Shown here piece by piece: positions 1 to 40,672 of a DNA stretch of 50,793 nt. Position numbers and translations under genes: made by a program. Each line of letters starts with the position of its first letter. Position 1 is the first letter of the stretch. This DNA is from Candidatus Gastranaerophilales bacterium. Lineage in GTDB: Bacteria > Cyanobacteriota > Vampirovibrionia > Gastranaerophilales > Gastranaerophilaceae. The notes beneath the pieces are model-generated. The model did no database searches. It had not been told where the DNA came from and worked only from the letters and a program-made list of their open reading frames with translations. Location: NCBI GenBank assembly GCA_944322955.1, contig CALUQQ010000055.1:1-50793 (forward strand), in the 5' to 3' direction.

Positions 1-23
1 CGACCACAACTTTGTAGGTCAGA

Positions 24-141
24 TTTACTAAACCGACAGTTACCTCTTAGTGCCTTAGTATCATAGTATCTTAATAACTTCTTCCAGAAAACACCCCCAA
101 AAATCGCACTACGAGCGGTTAAAAGGGTCGCCCCCCCCCGA
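24..141 (-). repeat. Copy A of a dispersed intergenic cassette (five 8-nt units at 41-80, conserved box 109-141 including the G9 tract)
   Basis: Aligns by eye with 29686-29803 (copy B). The box ctacgagcggttaaaagggtcgcccccccccga is identical in both. Partial copies at 40623-40672 and 44019-44074. Confidence 0.8.
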
Positions 142-166
142 CGTTACTAAATTTGTTGTTTTTCAT
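119..166 (-). CDS. Short ORF MKNNKFSNVGGGRPF* containing a G9 tract; with G10 the frame stays open to the left window edge
   Basis: AAGGAG (181-176) lies 9 nt before the ATG at 166. Promoter TTGCAA(230-225)-17-TGcTAAAAT(207-202). TAA at 121-119 with 9 G. Confidence 0.4.
   Translation of the reverse strand: MKNNKFSNVGGGRPF
131..139 (-). repeat. Homopolymer G9 (C9 on + strand)
   Basis: Counted directly; flanked by TC on the minus strand (TCG9), as at 11836-11844 and 29793-29801. Confidence 0.95.
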
Positions 167-201
167 TCGTTTTTTCTCCTTTTTTATACATTTTTTATTA
201 A

Positions 202-230
202 ATTTTAGCATTTTTTTGCAAATTTTGCAA
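202..230 (-). promoter_or_regulatory. Sigma70-type promoter for the G9 ORF (TTGCAA-17-TGcTAAAAT)
   Basis: Hexamers and 17-nt spacer read directly from the minus strand. Confidence 0.55.
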
Positions 231-2249: not shown

Positions 2250-5101
2250 GTTTCCCCCAGACTGATATCAATTACAAGCGGAACTTTTAACGGCTGATTA
2301 AGCTCCATTGCTTCTTTTACAATTTTTTGAACAGTTTCCAGTTCGTCTTTATATACTTCTAATACAAGTTCATCATGCACCTGAATCAGAAGTTTTGATT
2401 TCAGGCTAAATTCATGCATTTTCTTTTCAAGTTCGACCATAGCCATTTTAATCAAATCAGCTGCAGTGCCTTGCATAGGATGATTTATAGCAGCACGTTT
2501 TGCAAAATCTCTTACAAGGCCGTTTGTGCTGTGGAATTCACCAGAAAGATAGCGTTTTCGGCCCAATACAGTTTCAGCATAACCTTTTTCCGCAACTTTT
2601 TCCACCATTTCATCCATATATTTTTTTACATTAGGATAAGTTGCAAAATACCTGTTTATAAAATTATCAGCTTCTTCAACCGTTATATGCAAAGCCTTTG
2701 CAAGACCGTATTTGCTTTGTCCGTAAACAATACCAAAATTTACTGCCTTTGCTTTATAACGCATAGGCTTTGTAACCTCGTCCAAAGGCACATCAAAAAC
2801 CTTTGATGCTGTAATTTGATGAACATCCACTCCTGATTTGAACGCCTCGATCAAATTTTCATCTTCCGATACATGTGCTAAAAGCCGCAATTCAATCTGC
2901 GAATAATCCGCTGATAATATAAGAGCATTTTGTCTGTCACGAGGAACAAAGGCCTTCCTGATTTTGTTTCCTTCTTCTGTTCTGACAGGAATATTTTGTA
3001 AATTCGGCTTTGAAGACGATAACCGACCGGTTGCAGTCGTCGTTTGATTATATGTTGTATGAATTCTGCCGTCAACAGGACTTATTAATTCAGGCAAAGC
3101 ATCCGTATAAGTTGACTTTAACTTGGCATATTTTCTGGACTCCAAAATTAACCGCGCGATTTCATGTTCATGCGCCAATTCCGCAAGCACGTCGGCTCCA
3201 GTCGAAAATTTGTTTTTTGCACGTTTTTTCAATGGGGTTATCTGTAATTTATCAAATAAAACTTCCGAAACTTGCTTGGGAGAAGCAATATTAAACGCCT
3301 CACCGGCAATCTTATAAATTTTAAATTCAACCGAGCGCAGCCTGTCTGTCATATAAGTTGACAGTTCATTTAAATACTTTGCATCAACTGAAATCCCGTC
3401 ATACTCCATATCGGCAAGCACAATTGAAAGAGGAACTTCCATATCATAAAGAATATCCAATTCTTTTTCATCCAGCTTTTTAATCCAGAATTTAGTCAAT
3501 TCAAAAATTGTTGCCATAATATCCGAAACAAATTCGACCGCATTGTTTAAAGATGTATTAACGATTGTAGTATTTGTTTTAGCGCCTCTGGCAATCGGGG
3601 CAACATCATTCATAACATGATCAATATTTTCTATTGACTGAATATCCAAAAGATGTGTTCTGCTTGAATCTCTTACATAACTTGCAAGCAAAGTATCAAA
3701 TATAATTCCTTGTATGTTTATCCCGAAGGTTCTCAAAAAACTGTGTTCAATTTTTGCTTCATGTGTGATTTTTTTGATATTTTTATCTTCAAAAACAGGT
3801 TTTAAATAAGCAATTACATCCTCTTTTTTAAGCTGATTATCAATATGGTGGCTTATCGGGATATAAAATGTTTTTGTAACATTACCCTGATCTTCAAAAA
3901 TCACTCTTGAACCTTCAACCGAAAAATTATCATTATACGAAACAGCAAATCCGTATAGAACACCTGAAACAGCGCTTTTAACATCCCCCTCCATTCTGAA
4001 ACAGATTAACTTTTTCGTCTTTAAAATCTCGGCCAATTCTATCAAATCAGAAGTATCCGTTATAATTTTAGATTCAAAATCCAAACTTACCTTATTAATT
4101 TCAGCTTTAACAGCATCTGCAAAAAGCCCGAGCTGTCTTTGTCCTGCCTGCGGCAGCAGTATTTCCGGCACATTATCATTCACAGCAACAACTTTTGCGT
4201 TCCTGTCAAAAGTTGATAAAATTGAATCAATATTTTTTAAAAAGCCGAAAAATTGTAATTTTTTAAGAAAAGCCGTGACATTAGTTATATCAGGAAGTTC
4301 AATTTTGGCACTGGAAAAATCAAAATCAATATCGACATCTCTAACAATAGTTGCAAGAAAATAGCTCATCTTAGCTGCTTCAATATTTTCGCAAAAACAA
4401 TTTTTAATACTTTTAGGCGTAATCTCATCACAATGCGCAATAATATTTTCAAGATGACCGTATTTAGACAAAAGTTTTGTCGCGCTTTTTTCACCGATAC
4501 CTTTAACTCCGGGAATATTATCCGATGTATCTCCGCGCAAACTCTTATAATCAATCACCTGATCAGGATATACACCGAGCTTTTCATAAACTTTATCCCA
4601 ATCATATTCCTTCAATTCGCCTTTAGACGGAATAATAACCTTTACACAGCCCTCTTTATCAACCAATTGAAAAGAATCCTGATCACCGGTCAAAATCAAT
4701 ACTTTATGACCCAATTCGCACGCCTGCCTTGAAATAGTACCGATAACATCATCCGCTTCATATCCTTTTTTCGTATAAACGGGAATATTAAAGGCTTCAA
4801 GGCCCTCATAAATCAAATTCATCTGCACTTGAAGATTATCCGGCATAGCCTTGCGGTTAGCCTTATATTCAGGATATTTATCAACACGAAAAGTATCATG
4901 GCTCACGTCAAAAGCAACACAAATAGCGTCGGGTTTGAGCGTTCGGTTTTTTAACAAATCAAATATAGCTTTAAAAAATCCAAAAACAGCCCAAGTTGGT
5001 ATCCCAGTTGATGTTTTCATATTACTGCGTTCAAGCGCGTAAAATTGTCTAAAAGCCAGTGCATGACCGTCAATAAGTATTAAAGTTTTCTTTTTTTCCA
5101 T
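2237..5101 (-). CDS. polA: DNA polymerase I
   Basis: 954 aa with a 5' nuclease N-terminus (LILIDGHALAFR), DYSQIELR and QVHDELV polymerase motifs. Confidence 0.97.
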   Translation of the reverse strand: MEKKKTLILIDGHALAFRQFYALERSNMKTSTGIPTWAVFGFFKAIFDLLKNRTLKPDAICVAFDVSHDTFRVDKYPEYKANRKAMPDNLQVQMNLIYEGLEAFNIPVYTKKGYEADDVIGTISRQACELGHKVLILTGDQDSFQLVDKEGCVKVIIPSKGELKEYDWDKVYEKLGVYPDQVIDYKSLRGDTSDNIPGVKGIGEKSATKLLSKYGHLENIIAHCDEITPKSIKNCFCENIEAAKMSYFLATIVRDVDIDFDFSSAKIELPDITNVTAFLKKLQFFGFLKNIDSILSTFDRNAKVVAVNDNVPEILLPQAGQRQLGLFADAVKAEINKVSLDFESKIITDTSDLIELAEILKTKKLICFRMEGDVKSAVSGVLYGFAVSYNDNFSVEGSRVIFEDQGNVTKTFYIPISHHIDNQLKKEDVIAYLKPVFEDKNIKKITHEAKIEHSFLRTFGINIQGIIFDTLLASYVRDSSRTHLLDIQSIENIDHVMNDVAPIARGAKTNTTIVNTSLNNAVEFVSDIMATIFELTKFWIKKLDEKELDILYDMEVPLSIVLADMEYDGISVDAKYLNELSTYMTDRLRSVEFKIYKIAGEAFNIASPKQVSEVLFDKLQITPLKKRAKNKFSTGADVLAELAHEHEIARLILESRKYAKLKSTYTDALPELISPVDGRIHTTYNQTTTATGRLSSSKPNLQNIPVRTEEGNKIRKAFVPRDRQNALILSADYSQIELRLLAHVSEDENLIEAFKSGVDVHQITASKVFDVPLDEVTKPMRYKAKAVNFGIVYGQSKYGLAKALHITVEEADNFINRYFATYPNVKKYMDEMVEKVAEKGYAETVLGRKRYLSGEFHSTNGLVRDFAKRAAINHPMQGTAADLIKMAMVELEKKMHEFSLKSKLLIQVHDELVLEVYKDELETVQKIVKEAMELNQPLKVPLVIDISLGETWQE

Positions 5102-9986: not shown

Positions 9987-11323
9987 AAAAAATTTTAAAT
10001 TTACTGTTTATACTTTTGATTACTTCATTATCAGCTAATGCAAACAGTATAGAAAATGCGATATCGGATTCACGTATAAATAAAGGAGCACTGTCGATTT
10101 CAGTTAAAGATACAGCGAACGGTAAAACGCTATACAGACTTAACAGCGATAAGCCGACAATACCTGCTTCAACATTAAAAGCAATTACGCTTGCTGCAGC
10201 TTTAAATGAACTGGGAGAAAATTACGAATTTCAAACAACACTGTACAAAACATCCGATAATGAACTTTTTTTAAAACTCGGTGCAGATCCGTTTTTAAAA
10301 TCCAAAGACCTCAAAACGCTTTTAAAAACTGCTTATGATAATAAAATTATTTCACCTAAAGCATTTTTCATAGATACAAATATCCTCGACAAAACCGAAT
10401 GGGGCGAAGGCTGGCAATGGGATGACGATTTGAATCCGCTTATGCCGAAATTCAGCGCATACAATATTGATAATAATTTGATAAAAATTATTGTAAAACC
10501 AACTGCGAAAGATGCTCCTGCTGAAATCAAACTTGACGTATTTTATCCGGTAACTTTTATGAATCTGGTAACTACCGGTAGTAAAAACGAAATAACCATA
10601 ACCCGCAATAACAGCATAGCACCTAATGTTTTGAATATTGAAGGCACTGTATCCAAACAGATTGAACGGGAAATACCGGTTAACCATCTAAAAAGATACT
10701 TTATATTAAGACTGGAAGATGCTCTGCGCTCCGAAAAAATTGATTATTACGGAAATTTTACAGAAAAAAATCTCCCTAAACAAAATACATATCAAGTTTC
10801 AAATATTTCACACCCGATGAGTTCTGCAATTGATGAAATCATGAAAAACAGCAATAACATGGCAGCAGAAACCGTGTTTAAAATCGCCGGAGGACACTAT
10901 GCAAAATCTGCCGGCAGCGCAGAAAATGCAGTTGCAATGTTTCTTGATTACTGCGAAAAACTCGGCGTGAACACTGATGACATTAAAATAGTCGACGGAA
11001 GCGGCGTTTCTAAAAATAATCTTGTAACAGCTGACTTTATGACATCTTTTTTGACCGCACAATATCAAAAAGATGCTGAATACAAAGAGATGTTTGCATC
11101 AGCAGGGCAGGGTACATTAAAAGACAGAATGCTCTATTTCGGCGATAACCTTAAAGCTAAGACAGGAACTCTCTCTGATGTCAGCGCAATTACCGGATAT
11201 CTTAAAACCGCAAAAGGGAATCTTGTGGCTTTTGATATTATAATTAACGACCCGAATTCTAAAACGTCCGATAAAAAAATGCTTGAAGAATATATCTTAA
11301 GAGCTATTCATACATCATATTAA
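9983..11323 (+). CDS. dacB: D-alanyl-D-alanine carboxypeptidase/endopeptidase (PBP4 family)
   Basis: Signal peptide, ASTLK (SxxK) and KTGT motifs; 446 aa. Confidence 0.85.
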   Translation: MKKILNLLFILLITSLSANANSIENAISDSRINKGALSISVKDTANGKTLYRLNSDKPTIPASTLKAITLAAALNELGENYEFQTTLYKTSDNELFLKLGADPFLKSKDLKTLLKTAYDNKIISPKAFFIDTNILDKTEWGEGWQWDDDLNPLMPKFSAYNIDNNLIKIIVKPTAKDAPAEIKLDVFYPVTFMNLVTTGSKNEITITRNNSIAPNVLNIEGTVSKQIEREIPVNHLKRYFILRLEDALRSEKIDYYGNFTEKNLPKQNTYQVSNISHPMSSAIDEIMKNSNNMAAETVFKIAGGHYAKSAGSAENAVAMFLDYCEKLGVNTDDIKIVDGSGVSKNNLVTADFMTSFLTAQYQKDAEYKEMFASAGQGTLKDRMLYFGDNLKAKTGTLSDVSAITGYLKTAKGNLVAFDIIINDPNSKTSDKKMLEEYILRAIHTSY

Positions 11324-11477
11324 AATATTTTTATTGGTTCTTTAACAATCATTCTGCAATCGTGGGTTACATCTTTGCAGATATCATACTGAACTTTATC
11401 TCCGCAATATTTGGCACTTTTTATATAGCCTGTTGTGCACGCTGCACGACGGAAATTCGCATCCTTCAGCAGCAGCC

Positions 11478-11855
11478 TTACCTGCGTTTACCACCCTCAA
11501 ACACATCGTACATTACGTTCGCGCTCAAATGCTCCTTACTCGTTCCGCCCGACGGCTCATCATCTTTATAAGCAGGGATTACCTTCCCGCTTTTCAATAA
11601 ATAAAACGGAAATACGTCTTTCCACAATTCACTCTTGCCTGAATTCCCGTTTACATCTACATATATCTTAAAGCCTTTTCTGTCATTCTCATCTTCTGCA
11701 TCTGACAATTCATCTATTTTTTCATAATCTGTTCCTGTTATCGGCAATGTCACGCATACCACCATAGTTATTGCAACCAAAGCAACCACCAGTTCACCTA
11801 GCGTGAAACCCAGTCTATTTGGGCTTAAAGAGCTACCCCCCCCCGATTTGTACAA
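11478..11855 (-). CDS. Prepilin-type N-terminal cleavage/methylation protein, interrupted at both ends (G9 tract at the 5' end, frameshift at the 3' end)
   Basis: ...NRLG/FTLGELVVALVAITM motif and DVNGNSGKS motif shared with the other two pilins. The in-frame start is an SD-less TTG. See findings. Confidence 0.7.
   Translation of the reverse strand: MYKSGGGSSLSPNRLGFTLGELVVALVAITMVVCVTLPITGTDYEKIDELSDAEDENDRKGFKIYVDVNGNSGKSELWKDVFPFYLLKSGKVIPAYKDDEPSGGTSKEHLSANVMYDVFEGGKRR
11836..11844 (-). repeat. Homopolymer G9 inside the prepilin leader
   Basis: Counted directly. Confidence 0.95.
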
Positions 11856-11893
11856 AAATTTTCAAATACTTTCATTTCAACTCCTTTTACTAC

Positions 11894-26099: not shown

Positions 26100-26173
26100 A
26101 CTTTACAAGCCATAATTTAGGGGTAGAGTGTATCAAACAACATTAATCGTTCAAACTTATTTTTTCGGGATTA

Positions 26174-26263
26174 AATAATGTATACCCAAACCCGCTTAGT
26201 TAACATATCGCCGGTATGCAGCCAGCCATTTTAATAATGTATACCCAGACCCGCCTAGTTAAC
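26174..26263. repeat. Two 31-nt direct repeats (26174-26204, 26233-26263; 2 mismatches) separated by 28 nt
   Basis: aataatgtatacccaRacccgcYtagttaac read twice. Confidence 0.85.
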
Positions 26264-26288: not shown

Positions 26289-27017
26289 TTATCTTAAAAT
26301 CATGTCGTCATTAATTTCCCAATTATGTCGAATAATATAAGAAAAACAATAATAACCGCGCCCGCCGTCTGAACAATCAGCATCAACTTCGTCATTAGAT
26401 TTGTCCGAACCTGCCGGCAAAAGATTTCTGTTATTAAACACAAACACAAAAATATCTCGTCCGATAACATTCGGGCCGGAATCACCATTTACATCAACAT
26501 GCATAACAAGCCCGGCTTTATCCATTTCAACTCCGAAATTATCTTCAATATCCTGCGCACTGGCACCGTCCATATTAACATAAACATTATCAAGCGTTTG
26601 AAAAACAATTATATTACCGCCAATTCCTTTAGTGCCTTCATCCCAAATCGCAGTCTGACCGTTCAATTGTTTAGTGACGCCTTCCTTATGCCAGCAGCCC
26701 GGAGTGTCATCCAGACAGTCTTTTTGTATACGTAAATTAGGTTTCAAATAATAATTATACCAATTTTTCATACTTTCATTATTACCGTCCTCAAAATCAA
26801 CGTATGAATAACCCAAATTATCTGCTACGGTTTTTTGAATAGCCTGCTGCAAAACCGAATAAGTTTTTTTCAATTTTGTAATTGTTACAACGCGCTTGTA
26901 ATCCTTAATCAATGTCGGAATAGTCATTGCGGCAACAATTCCGATAACACCAAGTGTTATCAAAACTTCCGCAAGAGTAAATGCCGTATGAAATTTATTA
27001 ACACAAAATCTGGACAT
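26289..27017 (-). CDS. Prepilin-type N-terminal cleavage/methylation protein
   Basis: MSRFCVNKFHTA/FTLAEVLITLGVIGIVAAMTIPTL and DVNGDSGPN motif. I prefer the ATG at 27017 over the TTG at 27047. Confidence 0.8.
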   Translation of the reverse strand: MSRFCVNKFHTAFTLAEVLITLGVIGIVAAMTIPTLIKDYKRVVTITKLKKTYSVLQQAIQKTVADNLGYSYVDFEDGNNESMKNWYNYYLKPNLRIQKDCLDDTPGCWHKEGVTKQLNGQTAIWDEGTKGIGGNIIVFQTLDNVYVNMDGASAQDIEDNFGVEMDKAGLVMHVDVNGDSGPNVIGRDIFVFVFNNRNLLPAGSDKSNDEVDADCSDGGRGYYCFSYIIRHNWEINDDMILR

Positions 27018-27414
27018 GAACTGTTCTGGTCCTCGCTTTATTATCAAAATCTACCAACACGATTTGCTGCCACTGCCCTAATTGCAAAGCTCCTTCCAAT
27101 AGAGGCACCATTGTAGAATTACCTACAATTGAAGCTCTGATATGAGAATAACCGTTTCCATCATGCCACATCTCATCATGATGATATTCTTTATTAACCG
27201 GCACAATTTTATCCAAAATTTCCGGCAAATCTTTTAACAAACCAGGTTCATACTCAATATTTGTAATTGAAACAGTGCTGCCGGCGACATACACATATAC
27301 AACCGCATCTTTCAATGAATGCCTGTATACAAGATTTTTCACCTCGTTAGTAACATCGATAATATCAGTATTACCTTTAGTATGTACTGTAAATTTTTCA
27401 CAAATTATTGTCAT
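26998..27414 (-). CDS. yjbQ: YjbQ/UPF0047 family protein (secondary thiamine-phosphate synthase-like)
   Basis: 138 aa with the family-typical ...YHHDEMWHDGNGYSHIRASIVG... block. Confidence 0.8.
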   Translation of the reverse strand: MTIICEKFTVHTKGNTDIIDVTNEVKNLVYRHSLKDAVVYVYVAGSTVSITNIEYEPGLLKDLPEILDKIVPVNKEYHHDEMWHDGNGYSHIRASIVGNSTMVPLLEGALQLGQWQQIVLVDFDNKARTRTVHVQILC

Positions 27415-28724
27415 AAACTAAATCTAATGTCCCCGCGTTTTACGATTTTTCGTCCTTTAGAATATGTTGAATACGGCATGTATTTGTTAACAATTGCTCT
27501 GTAATCCTCGCCGTCATCAAGCTTAAACACATTGAAATCAGCATCTTTGCCGACTTCTATGGAACCTGTGACATGATCAAGCCTTAAAATTTTTGCAGGA
27601 TAAATCGTCAAATATTTCAAAAGTTCAATAACATCAAGCTGATTTTCACTGTTGCATTCAACTGCAAGTTTTAAAAGGCTGTAATCTTTTTCAAGCTTGA
27701 AACTTTGAGAAGAGAACCCGAAATTTTTCCCGAAATATTTCAAAACAGTTGAAAAATCAAGTTTTTTATTGCAGATTTCCTCGCTGTATCTGGGCTGATA
27801 AACAAATTTAACGCCTGTTTCAGCAAGTTCTTCAAGCTGGCTGTCATTTACGTAATTCGCATTGACAGCAATAACCTTTTTAGTTAAAACTTTCAAATCA
27901 TCAAGATATTTAACAGGATCTTCCATACGCTTGTACGGTGTAATTTTTCTAAATCCCATAAATTTATGCAATAAATCAATATCGGAAAATCCGTGCTCCA
28001 GCCATTCCATTTCGTCCTGAGCTTCAGCAAAACGTGTCATCAAAAGCATGTTATGCTTGCGGCAGTATTTGGAAAACAATTCCCATAATTTTTTATGCAC
28101 ACCCGGAATTGAATGAAGCATAATTCCGATGTGGGTATTTTCGCCTTTATGGAATACGTAATTTTCAACCTTATCTCGCAAAGCCTTGAATTTTTTCTTA
28201 CTTTTGTCGGAGCTGTCCGCAAAAACCTCAAAAAACATATAGTTTTTAATAGGAGTTTTATTTATAATTTCAAAATACTTATCCTCTTTTGAAACCTGAG
28301 CAATACATGTAGTGCCGGCTTTAACGGAAGCTGCCAGACCGTCTTTAAAAGATTGAATTTTTTCATACCTGTCTAAAACAAAATAATCGCTCAGAATATT
28401 TGCCCATTTTAAGCTGTAATTATCAGGTTTTACGCCAGCAAAGGTATATTTTTTTGCAATTGTCTGAAAGAATTTTTTCAAATTATTTTTAACGCCGCAG
28501 GGCTTTATTTTTCCGATATCCGTATACTGATACTGGGTGAACATGTCGATAAATCCCGGCGTAACGACTGAATTTCCGAGATCTTTGACAAATTTTTCTT
28601 CAAATTTTGAAGTTTCATCATTCGGAATAATTTCAACAAACTTGCCTTCATCAACTACCAGCGCCATATTTTCAAGCACATCGCCCGTTGAAGTTAATAT
28701 CCATCTTGATTTGTAGCACTTCAT
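27411..28724 (-). CDS. Amidohydrolase-fold protein lacking the N-terminal HxH metal motif
   Basis: ...VVTPGFIDMFTQ... where PGFIDxHxH is expected; C-terminal GSIEVGKDADF. Confidence 0.65.
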   Translation of the reverse strand: MKCYKSRWILTSTGDVLENMALVVDEGKFVEIIPNDETSKFEEKFVKDLGNSVVTPGFIDMFTQYQYTDIGKIKPCGVKNNLKKFFQTIAKKYTFAGVKPDNYSLKWANILSDYFVLDRYEKIQSFKDGLAASVKAGTTCIAQVSKEDKYFEIINKTPIKNYMFFEVFADSSDKSKKKFKALRDKVENYVFHKGENTHIGIMLHSIPGVHKKLWELFSKYCRKHNMLLMTRFAEAQDEMEWLEHGFSDIDLLHKFMGFRKITPYKRMEDPVKYLDDLKVLTKKVIAVNANYVNDSQLEELAETGVKFVYQPRYSEEICNKKLDFSTVLKYFGKNFGFSSQSFKLEKDYSLLKLAVECNSENQLDVIELLKYLTIYPAKILRLDHVTGSIEVGKDADFNVFKLDDGEDYRAIVNKYMPYSTYSKGRKIVKRGDIRFSL

Positions 28725-28777: not shown

Positions 28778-29521
28778 TTATAATCTTGATCTGCCGTAAA
28801 GCCATGTAATATAATAACATTTCCCTGAAGGGCACCAGCGCTCTTTTATCGTGATATCATGATTCATGCTTGGTTTTACCATATCCGGCACAGAATCCGA
28901 ATACGGTGACGAATTGTTTGCTGACATTGCAAACCCGAATCTGTCTTTTCCGAGTTGATTCGGACCTTTAAAACCGTTAGTATCGACTAAAAATACCGGT
29001 TCATTACTTGAATACATCTTCCAATTGCGGCCTTGAGCGTCAATAAACGAATATTCCCCCTGACATACGATTGTACCTTTAAAATTTTCGTCAACATGAG
29101 TAATATATGCCTGCTCAGCGTCTTTGCATTTCCAGCAGATGTCACCGTATTCTCTATCAAAACACGTTTTGGTTGCTTTAAAATATTTTGCCAGGATTTT
29201 AAAGTTTTCAGCATAATTAGGGGAATAACCAGGCTTTGGATTACCTTCTTCATCATTTATAAAAACAATTTTTTGCAAAGAAGTTCCGTCGGCCAACAGC
29301 ATCTTGAATGCCTGATTTACGTCGCTGAATGCTGCTTTATAGGCGTTTTTATAGACAAAATCCTGCATATTTGATATCAAAGTCGGAATTGTCATGGCTG
29401 CCACAACACCGATTATGCCAAGAGTAATTAAGACTTCGGCAAGAGTAAAAGCTGCTTTTTTTGAAGTAAATAAGGTAGTAGGGGAATAATGGAATAAGTG
29501 TTTTCTGTGTGCATCGCACAA
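28778..29521 (-). CDS. Prepilin-type N-terminal cleavage/methylation protein
   Basis: ...TSKKAA/FTLAEVLITLGIIGVVAAMTIPTL and DTNGFKGPN motif. The only in-frame start is the TTG at 29521, 8 nt after GAGGGG. Confidence 0.75.
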   Translation of the reverse strand: MCDAHRKHLFHYSPTTLFTSKKAAFTLAEVLITLGIIGVVAAMTIPTLISNMQDFVYKNAYKAAFSDVNQAFKMLLADGTSLQKIVFINDEEGNPKPGYSPNYAENFKILAKYFKATKTCFDREYGDICWKCKDAEQAYITHVDENFKGTIVCQGEYSFIDAQGRNWKMYSSNEPVFLVDTNGFKGPNQLGKDRFGFAMSANNSSPYSDSVPDMVKPSMNHDITIKERWCPSGKCYYITWLYGRSRL

Positions 29522-29602
29522 GGGGCTTACCCCTCACCTTGAGGGCGGGGGTTGAATTTCAACACCAGCTTGCGAGTGTTTGAAATTCGGGGACGGGGTC
29601 GC
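29521..29602. repeat. REP/MITE-like double-hairpin module (copy 1)
   Basis: GAATTTCAACAC-10 nt-GTGTTTGAAATTC (29554-29588) flanked by G/C-rich short hairpins. Homologous to 40544-40609 in the opposite orientation relative to the neighbouring repeat. Confidence 0.7.
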
Positions 29603-29685
29603 ATTTTTTGAGATCCTTCGGCTATCGCCTCAGGATGACAAGACAAATTCCTCCAATGCCCAGTGCGTTGTCCCGACTTTTGCAG

Positions 29686-29803
29686 TTTACTAACCCGACT
29701 GTTACTTCTTAGTGCCTTAGTGCCATAGTATCTTAGTATCTTTTTCCAATAGATACCTTCGAAACTTCCTCTACGAGCGGTTAAAAGGGTCGCCCCCCCC
29801 CGA
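29686..29803 (-). repeat. Copy B of the dispersed cassette (8-nt units 29703-29742; conserved box 29771-29803 with G9 at 29793-29801)
   Basis: Aligned by eye with 24-141. Confidence 0.8.
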
Positions 29804-29828
29804 GATCCATACTAATCATATCTGCCAT
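29781..29828 (-). CDS. Short ORF MADMISMDLGGGRPF* containing a G9 tract; G10 gives a 102-codon frame ending 5 nt before the pilin TTG
   Basis: AGGAGG (29840-29835) lies 6 nt before the ATG at 29828, which starts 2 nt after the obg stop. Internal promoter at 29847-29874. Confidence 0.4.
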   Translation of the reverse strand: MADMISMDLGGGRPF

Positions 29829-29830
29829 TT

Positions 29831-31120
29831 CTACCCTCCTGAATACATTTTATCATCAAAATATTCCATTTCAAGGTGACCTATGACGATTGTGTCGCCG
29901 TCTTTTACACCTTGTTTTTTCAGCTCCTCAAATACACCCATGCCGGTAAGAATATTTTGCAGCCTAATAATCTGTTCGGTATTTCTTGCATCCGTAACCG
30001 CCGCGAGCCGTCTTATTTTGCCGCCGTCCACAATGTATGTGTCTTTTGCAGTTTTATAAATTTCAAAAGCACTATCGTCATTATTATAAGCAGCAAAATC
30101 TTCTTCCACAACAATATCTGATACGTGATGCTCAATCTCATCCACTTTAACCGCCATAAAATCAAGCAGTTTATCAAGATTTTCGCCTGTTACGGCAGAA
30201 ATAAGGAAAACGTCCTTTGCGGCTTTTTTAAACTCAGCCGACAATTCATCCTGTATTGCTTTATCAACCGCGTCAATTTTATTCAAAACAACAATTTGAT
30301 ATAGATTAGCAAGCTTTTCGGAATGTTTTTCAAGCTCTGAAATAATTATTTCATAATTTCTAAAAGGGTTGTCTGCCGTAATATCAACAAGATGGACAAG
30401 AAAACGGCAGCGTTCAATATGACGCAAAAATTCATGCCCCAGCCCGACACCTTCAGACGCACCTTCAATCAAACCCGGAATATCTGCAACCACATAACCG
30501 TCACCCGAGCGTTTTTTCACCACGCCCAGATTAGGAATTAATGTAGTGAAAGGATAATCGGCGATTTTGGGTTTGGCGGAAGAAATTCTGCTTATAAGTG
30601 TTGATTTTCCTGCATTCGGCATACCTAAAAGCCCGACATCCGCAATTAATTTCAATTCGAGCTCAAGTTCGCGTTCAATGCCCGGTTCTCCCGGTTCACA
30701 AAACTGCGGGGCACGTTTTTGAGCGGTTGCGAATCTTGCATTTCCCCTGCCGCCTCTGCCGCCTTTGGCAACAAGAACTTTTTGTTCGTGTTCTGTTAAA
30801 TCAGCAATGGCCTTACCGGTTTTCAAATCTCTGACAACCGTTCCCACAGGAACTTTTATCACTAAATCTTTAGCACATTTGCCATGCATATTTTTAATAC
30901 TGCCGTTTTCGCCGTTTTCTGCTTTAAATACAGATTTATATTTAAAATCCATCAACGTTGACATATTTTCGTCCGCAATCAAATAGACATCACCGCCGGA
31001 ACCGCCGTCCCCGCCTGCCGGGCCGCCTTTATCTACATATTTTTCGCGACGCCAGGCAACCATACCGTTTCCGCCTCGTCCTGAAATAATTTTTATTCCG
31101 GTTTTGTCTAAAAATTGCAT
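29831..31120 (-). CDS. obg: GTPase Obg/CgtA
   Basis: MQFLDKTGIKIISGRGGNG N-terminus, GMPNAGKST, DIPGLIEGA, NKID. Confidence 0.96.
   Translation of the reverse strand: MQFLDKTGIKIISGRGGNGMVAWRREKYVDKGGPAGGDGGSGGDVYLIADENMSTLMDFKYKSVFKAENGENGSIKNMHGKCAKDLVIKVPVGTVVRDLKTGKAIADLTEHEQKVLVAKGGRGGRGNARFATAQKRAPQFCEPGEPGIERELELELKLIADVGLLGMPNAGKSTLISRISSAKPKIADYPFTTLIPNLGVVKKRSGDGYVVADIPGLIEGASEGVGLGHEFLRHIERCRFLVHLVDITADNPFRNYEIIISELEKHSEKLANLYQIVVLNKIDAVDKAIQDELSAEFKKAAKDVFLISAVTGENLDKLLDFMAVKVDEIEHHVSDIVVEEDFAAYNNDDSAFEIYKTAKDTYIVDGGKIRRLAAVTDARNTEQIIRLQNILTGMGVFEELKKQGVKDGDTIVIGHLEMEYFDDKMYSGG
29847..29874 (-). promoter_or_regulatory. Promoter TTGAAA-16-TAAAAT embedded in the obg 3' end
   Basis: Read directly from the minus strand. 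Confidence 0.5.
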
Positions 31121-40543: not shown

Positions 40544-40609
40544 GAATTTCTAACACTCGCAAAGCTCGTGTGAAATTTTTTCCCCGTCCTCAAGGGGTGG
40601 GGAAATAGC
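40544..40609. repeat. REP/MITE-like double-hairpin module (copy 2)
   Basis: gaatttctaacactcgcaaagctcgtgtgaaatt...ccccgtcctcaaggggtgggg aligns with the reverse complement of 29521-29602. Confidence 0.65.
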
Positions 40610-40622
40610 TTATAGGTCGGCA

Positions 40623-40672
40623 TTTACTATGCTGACAGTAAATTCTTAGTGCCTATAATATCTTAATAACTT
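40623..40672 (-). repeat. Copy C (partial; 8-nt-unit segment only, one unit deleted)
   Basis: tttactatgctgacagtaaattcttagtgcctataatatcttaataactt aligns with 24-80 and 29686-29742. Confidence 0.7.
40632..40659 (+). promoter_or_regulatory. Candidate aspS promoter CTGACA-16-TATAAT, formed inside repeat copy C
   Basis: Hexamers read directly, 87 nt upstream of the aspS ATG. Confidence 0.45.

Follow-up and report, generated by a model that had tools for sequence, protein, structure and literature searches.

A poly-G tract ahead of a pilin-like gene in a gut Gastranaerophilales bacterium as a probable phase-variation switch

Introduction

Most known cases of phase variation through poly-G or poly-C tracts come from a few mucosal pathogens. 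The G run of pilC is said, in work of Jonsson et al. from 1991, to lie within the signal-peptide region. Homopolymers also serve programmed transcriptional slippage, as in Thermus dnaX (A9), Shigella mxiE (T9) and the transposases of insertion sequence (IS) elements, where the runs are of A or T. In gonococcal and meningococcal pilC the genic G run counts 9-20 nucleotides (PMC5953494), and the modal length of nine in the poly-G tracts of Campylobacter jejuni has been ascribed to an insertion bias at G8 and a deletion bias at G11 (PMC3401435). Repeat DNA of another sort is found in Rickettsia, whose palindromic elements (RPEs) are repeats that sit as in-frame insertions within protein-coding genes (PMC10969869). 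Here we describe a locus at the left edge of a 50,793-nucleotide stretch of DNA (the window; contig CALUQQ010000055.1) from Candidatus Gastranaerophilales bacterium, an uncultured gut commensal of the Vampirovibrionia ('Melainabacteria'), the sister lineage of Cyanobacteria. A run of nine G lies there a few codons into a pilin-like gene, and it is probably a slipped-strand translational phase-variation switch that is currently OFF. This kind of phase variation is known, but here it belongs to a very large, undescribed gene family with unusually long, repeat-filled pre-sequences. Our search of the literature found nothing linking Melainabacteria or Gastranaerophilales to homopolymer phase variation, and no mention of DUF6613, the domain that these pilins carry.

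The left-edge cassette

At the window's left edge, the minus strand carries the following features.

Positions 202-230, minus strand: promoter-like site (-35 TTGCAA 230-225, 17-nt spacer, -10 TAAAAT 207-202, TG at 210-209)
Positions 176-181, minus strand: Shine-Dalgarno sequence (SD) AAGGAG, 9 nt upstream of the ATG at 166
Positions 119-166, minus strand: short open reading frame (ORF) as assembled (OFF state), MKNNKFSNVGGGRPF, with ATG 166-164 and stop TAA 121-119
Positions 131-139, minus strand: G9 homopolymer tract, nine codons from ATG166 (ATG counted), the proposed slipped-strand switch
Positions 115-130, minus strand: tract-adjacent motif CGAC-N6-AACCGC, which recurs beside other tracts
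Positions 1-131, minus strand: 5' portion of the pilin pre-sequence in the frame reached with one more G (+1G frame), ATLLTARSAIFGGVFWKKLLRYYDTKALRGNCRFSKSDLQSCG..., without a stop as far as the window edge and made of a multi-copy repeat module

To judge by its sequence, the segment from 230 to 1 would be an expression cassette with the first ~45 codons of a type IV pilin-like gene that combines an N-terminal methylation motif with DUF6613. The promoter, SD, ATG, G9 tract and 15-codon stop reported in a preliminary description of this DNA are all in place on the minus strand. As assembled, the 15 codons of the short ORF read ATG AAA AAC AAC AAA TTT AGT AAC GTC, then the G9 tract, then CGA CCC TTT TAA. 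One G more in the tract, or two fewer, joins ATG166 to the downstream frame, which translates as GGGATLLTARSAIFGGVFWKKLLRYYDTKALRGNCRFSKSDLQSCG and, as that description also held, meets no stop before position 1; the third frame past the tract stops after 7 codons (GGGDPFNRS, then the stop). With G9, a TAA three codons ahead of the tract closes the downstream frame, which has no alternative start; the tract is therefore truly out of frame. Two marks of phase-variable genes are found here: a homopolymer of at least 8 nt in the 5' coding region (the G9 at 139-131), and a long ORF with a recognisable product that a change of one nucleotide restores, as at the loci L001 and L125 described below.

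Within positions 1-400, the promoter is the single match to a sigma-70-like site, a number not beyond chance (shuffled sequences average 1.6); the TTGCAA/TAAAAT pair at 230-202 is presumably used. The 5' untranslated region that follows it (AAATGTAT..AAGGAGAAAAAA) is common to the paralogous cassette L126, and the same layout of SD and ATG is seen in L125, L126, L127, L129 and the cassettes built on a C run (C-type, below).

Continuation into a pilin gene

The gene body lies outside the window, as had been anticipated, and can be followed in another assembly of the same organism, the 68.7-kb scaffold_995 of ENA ERZ16268105 (L001). It reaches 9 kb further left than the window and is among the 16 public contigs that encode the neighbouring TlyA-like protein (an exact look-up of the TatD product returned no record). 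From the promoter to CGGTTTA, L001 and the window are identical, except that the L001 tract is G8A instead of G9. Over the 222 nt from the tract to FTLAEV, L001 has 0 stops in the +1 frame and 6 and 5 in the other two. The open frame leads into a class-III signal sequence, KRVA/FTLAEVLITLGIIGVVAAM (KRVA/FTLAEVLITLGIIGVVAAMTIPTL; the slash marks the cleavage site), with a methylation motif, a hydrophobic helix and Glu at +5, and then into DUF6613 (PF20318), for which the gene fragment 3' of the cassette scores above the Pfam cut-off. Counted from the cassette ATG, the pre-sequence is ~95 aa long with Ala at -1, not the short (~5-30 aa) basic leader with Gly at -1 that marks a pilin.

The preliminary description had the frame diverge into a basic, non-pilin sequence; because the L001 frame runs on into the pilin motif and DUF6613, that basic sequence is instead a long pilin pre-sequence. 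At L125, beside serS, the +1G frame is open for 257 nt into SKKAA/FTLAEV and yields a 328-aa protein, P0010, with N_methyl and DUF6613. The run-on in L001 and the in-frame product of L125 support the +1G frame as the real coding frame. When the locus is followed leftward in L001 and translated in this frame, no stops appear just past the point of the window edge and homologues are present. A likeness once seen to the leader of the cassette at 11836 turned out to be superficial, as only L and R are identical and the nucleotide alignment is shifted by one base.

The window haplotype parts from L001 left of CGGTTTA. The gene body of the window's own strain was not recovered because assemblies break at the multi-copy repeat; four others also break within ~40 nt of the window's left end (L002, L003, L010, and Logan contigs slightly further right). 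The contig ends shared at window positions 1-40 are consistent with such a repeat-caused break. Across five samples the left-edge tract is G9 in three (window, L003, L010) and G8A in two (L001, L002), which is a substitution and not a change of length.

The orthologous body was also sought from its far side, through iPGM, and no orthologue was found: in related species iPGM follows a tract-less paralogue. There (L139-L146) iPGM and an SNF2 helicase gene come after the tract-less pilin in the order amidohydrolase-YjbQ-pilin-iPGM, whereas in this organism it is the left-edge pilin that precedes them (window 26289-28724; L001 6629-8600). The iPGM homologues, too, are labelled Candidatus Gastranaerophilales. 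This differing synteny suggests a rearrangement with its breakpoint at the pilin paralogues.

A family-wide cassette

Further loci came from a search for the tract-adjacent motif in species-representative genomes, which gave 11 useful loci in metagenome-assembled genomes of Candidatus Gastranaerophilales (the rest being mostly chance matches in high-GC genomes), and from a JGI metagenome scan with a degenerate motif, which gave one relevant locus, L121 (the others being chance or CRISPR-like matches in high-GC DNA). The commonest form is the C-type cassette, with a highly conserved TTGACA promoter, SD, ATG and a leader M..KAVQIVAPPP that ends in a C run. G-type cassettes, the left-edge kind, have an SD, an ATG, 7-12 variable codons and a G run. 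In both, a spacer of 22-394 nt follows the tract and leads to the pilin motif. In all 14 intact loci the spacer is free of stops in the pilin frame, while each of the other frames holds up to 14 (counts per frame are 14, 0 and 8 in L047, 6, 0 and 7 in L127, and 8, 0 and 7 in L115). With the tract set to 10, eight loci give complete products of 264-413 aa from the cassette ATG.

A protein search with the conceptual ON product retrieved more than 7,400 relatives (N_methyl plus DUF6613). Among 117 that were examined, 52 have leaders of at most 25 aa; in 46 an open extension exceeds 40 aa, with a maximum of 262. The long extensions are packed with translated palindromic repeat units, for example VILNLFQDL, NEMLKQVQHD and PTLALPLKGGRG. 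DUF6613 scores 82 bits in P0010 and 87 bits in P0001 (cut-off 24.3), and N_methyl (PF07963) is above cut-off in P0010 and in the pilin-like ORF at 29.8 kb of the window. A scan of window ORFs showed no pilD or pilB-like gene. Upstream of the tract, L125 (1493-1520), L128 (690-740) and P0269 have two start codons that differ in frame; two of the three tract-length classes are therefore productive there, and the N-terminal peptides from the alternative starts are presumably discarded.

The repeat module and the tract-adjacent motif

The ~110 nt past the left-edge G9 recur at 29.8 kb in the window (84%), in L126 beside efp (nearly identical) and in L125; P0003 is a further protein with the module in frame. 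In the L126 and 29.8-kb copies the frame is broken by an inserted or altered repeat. Substitutions among module copies are spread evenly over codon positions, with a synonymous to non-synonymous ratio of ~3:11, and inside leaders the module occurs in both orientations (L113). The +1G peptide of the left-edge cassette has no Pfam match, and the idea that it is a functional protein domain was set aside on this ground and because its substitutions look neutral. An intron or riboswitch was dropped as well, after the pattern of a single stop-free frame had emerged. At the gathering score, Rfam 15 finds only a tRNA-Gly in the whole window; permissive scans of the left-edge and 29.8-kb loci returned chance-level matches only, and the 29.8-kb element folds with ordinary stability (z -1.3). 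We read the module as tolerated repeat DNA held open within the pre-sequence, neither a functional protein domain nor a structured RNA. Since prepilin peptidase presumably removes the pre-sequence, only its openness would be kept, not its peptide. In L001 (2380-2450) and many family proteins (P0003, P0020, P0024, P0033), a pre-sequence module repeats the cleavage motif without the hydrophobic helix (..G/FTLAEGATHV.....R..A/FTLAEVLITLG..). This duplicate could serve as a decoy or be what is left of a processing site.

The 16-nt motif CGAC-N6-AACCGC is always 3' of the homopolymer on the G strand, and occurs in both orientations relative to the gene (window 115-130 and 29777-29792, L001 2365-2380, L106, L121 and the C-type loci). 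In some G-type cassettes it lies downstream of the tract, where it is read in three different frames, and in C-type cassettes it is the antisense of the conserved leader KAVQIVA, upstream of the tract. Read on the C strand, it has the potential for a small GCGGT/GTCGC hairpin beside the run. The notion that what follows the tract in G-type cassettes is a reverse-complemented copy of the entire C-type leader was rejected, the similarity being confined to these 16 nt.

Tract length among samples and loci

In-frame alleles of related cassettes exist at the DNA level. Among G-type loci they are found in L121 (G12) and L127 (G12); among C-type loci they are found in P0300, P0329, P0337, P0340 and P0368, which start M..KAVQIVAPP(P). 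One C-type in-frame product has one Pro fewer, corresponding to C7, and C9 is also in frame in public assemblies. Tract lengths differ between samples: the window's own tract at 11.8 kb is G9, and G8 in L004. Because in-frame alleles reach consensus in several samples and tract length differs among samples, switching probably does occur at the DNA level. A locus next to a TPR gene in a related species is G10 in 10 of 10 samples from unrelated cohorts, with the product MKKNLFKLIGGGAIV ending at a stop in the same 15-codon architecture as at the left edge; a variant there is G9, and the in-frame product P0078 requires G11. In one 90% cluster, truncated calls of 201 aa are listed on more than 170 contigs and in-frame calls of 256-258 aa on ~17.

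Set against the in-frame length, the consensus tract lacks one nucleotide in 13 independent loci and two nucleotides in 2; 3 loci are in frame, and none has one nucleotide too many. Such regularity calls for a mutational bias, selection for OFF or some other mechanism. A bias like that of C. jejuni, with an in-frame length equal to the mode plus one, would keep the paralogues mostly off yet poised.

Proposed mechanism and alternatives

In the slipped-strand account, the sigma-70-like promoter would start transcription and ATG166 translation, and the ribosome would reach the G9 tract nine codons on. With the tract as assembled, translation would end after 15 codons and the gene would be OFF. 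Slipped-strand mispairing in replication that adds one G or removes two would put the ATG in frame with the long repeat-module pre-sequence (~95 aa in L001) and so with the cleavage/methylation motif (..KRVA/FTLAEVLITLGIIGVV..) and the DUF6613 body, turning the gene ON; prepilin peptidase would then cut the pre-sequence away. Switching would be reversible within a clone, and the left-edge copy may be functional in the window's strain. However, several observations weigh against this account. Near-uniform one-short tracts are not what a symmetric on/off switch predicts. No in-frame (G10) allele of the left-edge locus was found among the five samples, and a ~95-aa pre-sequence with Ala at -1 is atypical of prepilins. 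In L001 the pilin body falls into three frame segments (two frameshifts) with ~20 aa missing, and given these defects the locus may be decaying.

Could the left-edge copy be a decaying relic, a once-switchable pilin paralogue now permanently off in this lineage? This is possible, though we lean against it. L001, the sole assembly that spans the locus, has an interrupted tract (G8A) besides its fragmented body, so that the suggestion of an intact member of the family lacks support for this cassette, and the lack of an in-frame allele points the same way, as do the disrupted sister cassettes (window 29.8 kb, L126) and the 11.8-kb gene, which looks shortened and frameshifted compared with L106. 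Yet the G9 of the left-edge tract has no interruption, its cassette and module are whole and near-identical to L126, no stop closes the +1G frame before the window edge, and since the haplotypes differ left of CGGTTTA, the defects of L001 need not apply to the window strain. Programmed recoding would instead leave the DNA unchanged: RNA polymerase slippage (+1 G/C) or -1 ribosomal slippage on GGG or CCC would give a steady, low level of full-length pilin. It is unlikely, because in-frame alleles and between-sample tract differences do exist in the DNA and, efficient transcriptional slippage in bacteria is known from A/T runs and, to our knowledge, not from G/C runs. What it would explain is the one-short consensus in 13 independent loci, never one too long, and the constant G10 of the TPR-adjacent locus; a run of 9-10 also matches the length of the RNA-DNA hybrid (9-10 nt) at which slippage without mismatches becomes possible, and PPP and GGG codons are slow to translate. 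As for -1 frameshifting, the slippery run is present, but a conserved structure at a fixed distance downstream is not: the folds after the tract differ and are neither conserved nor unusually stable (z +0.5 to -2.2), and the sequences after C-type tracts are unrelated to each other. A bolder form of the idea takes the one-short rule as design and not mutation bias, leaving hundreds of pilin-like genes short by a single G or C, their full-length product mostly made by slippage on the 9-10-nt run, either of RNA polymerase or of ribosomes stalled at PPP/GGG codons. We think this quite improbable, and no less so its corollaries that expression of many pilin variants is graded, low-level and mixed, and that CGAC-N6-AACCGC and the long repeat-filled pre-sequence are working parts of a recoding device.

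The remaining explanations do without a switch at the tract or give the tract another role. If the true tract were G10 and the gene simply intact, the G9 would be an assembly or sequencing artefact. Homopolymers are error-prone and Ns lie inside the L027 tract, but independent assemblies (SPAdes NODE, MEGAHIT k87/k141, IDBA, scaffolds) give 9 here and at related loci and 10 at the TPR locus, and other homopolymer-containing genes of the window are intact; an artefact is thus very unlikely. The window is an ordinary stretch of housekeeping chromosome, and because its housekeeping genes are intact the assembly is not generally indel-prone. We give as little weight to the post-tract sequence being a structured non-coding RNA (riboswitch, intron or small RNA) in the 5' untranslated region, with the short ORF as a regulatory upstream ORF, in which case the pilin would be translated only from an internal SD with GTG or TTG (GGGAGGGG-N8-GTG in L001, GAGGGG-N8-TTG at 29.8 kb). 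The nucleotide module is conserved and its peptide is not, a gene-less solitary copy stands at 40.6 kb, and the SD-like G run can pair with a C-rich stretch just 5' of the GTG or TTG. However, neither Rfam, even at permissive thresholds, nor folding energy singles the module out; it occurs in both orientations within leaders; the internal start is absent in L126 (GTA); and an untranslated leader has no need of a single stop-free frame up to 394 nt ahead of the pilin motif. Finally, the tract and its motif could be a site of DNA inversion or cassette shuffling, as in a shufflon or in Piv-like pilin switching. We find this hardly credible. The motif does occur in both orientations relative to genes, and conserved and variable parts of the cassette do join at the tract, but all tracts of this organism have one chromosomal orientation, no inverted partner lies nearby, the window holds no recombinase or transposase gene, and similarity stops at the 16-nt motif.

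Other cassettes and paralogues in the window

Where the preliminary description counted the left-edge cassette as a second one, the window holds three. The other two are listed here with three related features.

Positions 29522-29840, minus strand: sister cassette right after obg (SD 29840-29835, inside the obg 3' end; ATG 29828; 8 codons; G9 29801-29793)
Positions 28778-29521, minus strand: pilin-like ORF downstream of the 29.8-kb cassette, with the N_methyl motif ..KKAA/FTLAEVLITLGIIGVVAAM
Positions 11300-11886, minus strand: third cassette (SD 11886-11881; ATG 11875; 10 codons; G9 11844-11836)
Positions 40560-40670, minus strand: solitary copy of the repeat module (GTTATTAAGATATTATAGGCACTAAGA..GTAAA..), with no tract, ATG or pilin and a stop in the corresponding frame
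Positions 26289-27017, minus strand: tract-less paralogue with an ordinary 12-aa leader (MSRFCVNKFHTA/FTLAEVLITLGVIGIVAAM), used as a comparison gene

All three G9 tracts (131-139, 11836-11844, 29793-29801) are on the minus strand, each 8-10 codons past an SD and ATG ahead of a pilin-like gene. As runs of at least 8 G they make 6 overlapping matches against 0.23 expected, a number reached in 0 of 100 shuffles, and every G/C run of at least 8 seen in this organism (the three in the window and one more in L001) lies within a pilin cassette. The closest relative of the left-edge cassette in the window is that at 29.8 kb, with 84% identity over 118 nt (24-141 versus 29686-29803). Its +1G frame ends after 100 codons, and it is the third frame that holds the pilin-like ORF; either the copy is disrupted or a second shift is needed. 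The 11.8-kb cassette would read MKVFENFCTNRGGGSSLSPNRLG/FTLGELVVALVAITMVV with G10; compared with its 413-aa homologue in L106, the gene has an apparent large internal deletion and a frameshift near GGKRR and its stop, and the C-terminal part (..ANFRRAACTTGYIKSAKYCGDKVQYDICKD..) goes on in another frame. The solitary module at 40.6 kb lies antisense in a 450-nt gap between an SPFH-domain gene and aspS, and carries a C-rich/G-rich hairpin and a second hairpin. Just 3' of the tract-less paralogue are two 34-nt direct repeats (26171-26263), 91% identical and 59 nt apart.

The four distinct tracts of this organism all have their C run on the plus strand. The L001 gene at 2420-3469 (tract 2357-2364) is on the plus strand and the three window genes are on the minus strand, and the orientation of the tract is the same throughout. 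GC skew is negative over most of the window, and the constant tract orientation may be linked to the direction of replication.

Comparison with known systems

If the slipped-strand reading is right, poly-G/C phase variation extends to a common, non-photosynthetic lineage of human-gut commensals, whose surface fibres would vary at random within the gut. Most such genes would then be mis-annotated by standard gene callers, with truncated starts or arbitrary long N-termini, and prepilin pre-sequences would be able to accommodate in-frame repeat DNA worth hundreds of residues. Why nearly all tracts are one short is a concrete question that can be addressed with metagenomic reads and metatranscriptomes.

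The nearest parallels are the contingency loci of Neisseria, Campylobacter and Haemophilus, above all pilC, where a G or C run of ~9 nt also lies a few codons into a pilus-related surface gene. As in poly-G contingency loci, a change of one nucleotide would switch translation and tract length varies among samples at the sister loci, and as in C. jejuni the modal length is near 9 (PMC3401435). Unlike those loci, the Gastranaerophilales switch belongs to an uncultured commensal and is a conserved multi-copy cassette of promoter, SD, ATG and tract in a family of thousands; up to ~400 nt of translated repeats separate the tract from the signal sequence, and the consensus is almost uniformly one nucleotide short of the in-frame length. 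A genome-encoded homopolymer of ~9 nt one nucleotide out of frame with a long product is also what programmed slippage genes have, but here the runs are of G or C and length variants exist in the DNA.

The products resemble type IV pilins and the pseudopilins of type II secretion (N_methyl, PF07963) in the FTLAEVLITLGIIGVVAAM motif, Glu at +5 and hydrophobic helix, and NCBI labels some family members 'type II secretion system protein'. They differ from type IV pilins in a pre-sequence of ~95 aa here and up to 262 aa in the family, against the usual 5-30 aa, in Ala instead of Gly at -1 in the left-edge subfamily, and in a globular part, DUF6613, with no characterised member; their genes are single and scattered among housekeeping genes. 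The repeats in the pre-sequence recall RPEs, being short palindromic modules of several families that lie within ORFs in either orientation and keep the frame open, with intergenic copies as well. Unlike RPEs, they gather at a single site that tolerates them, a pilin pre-sequence that is presumably discarded, and their peptides are not conserved.

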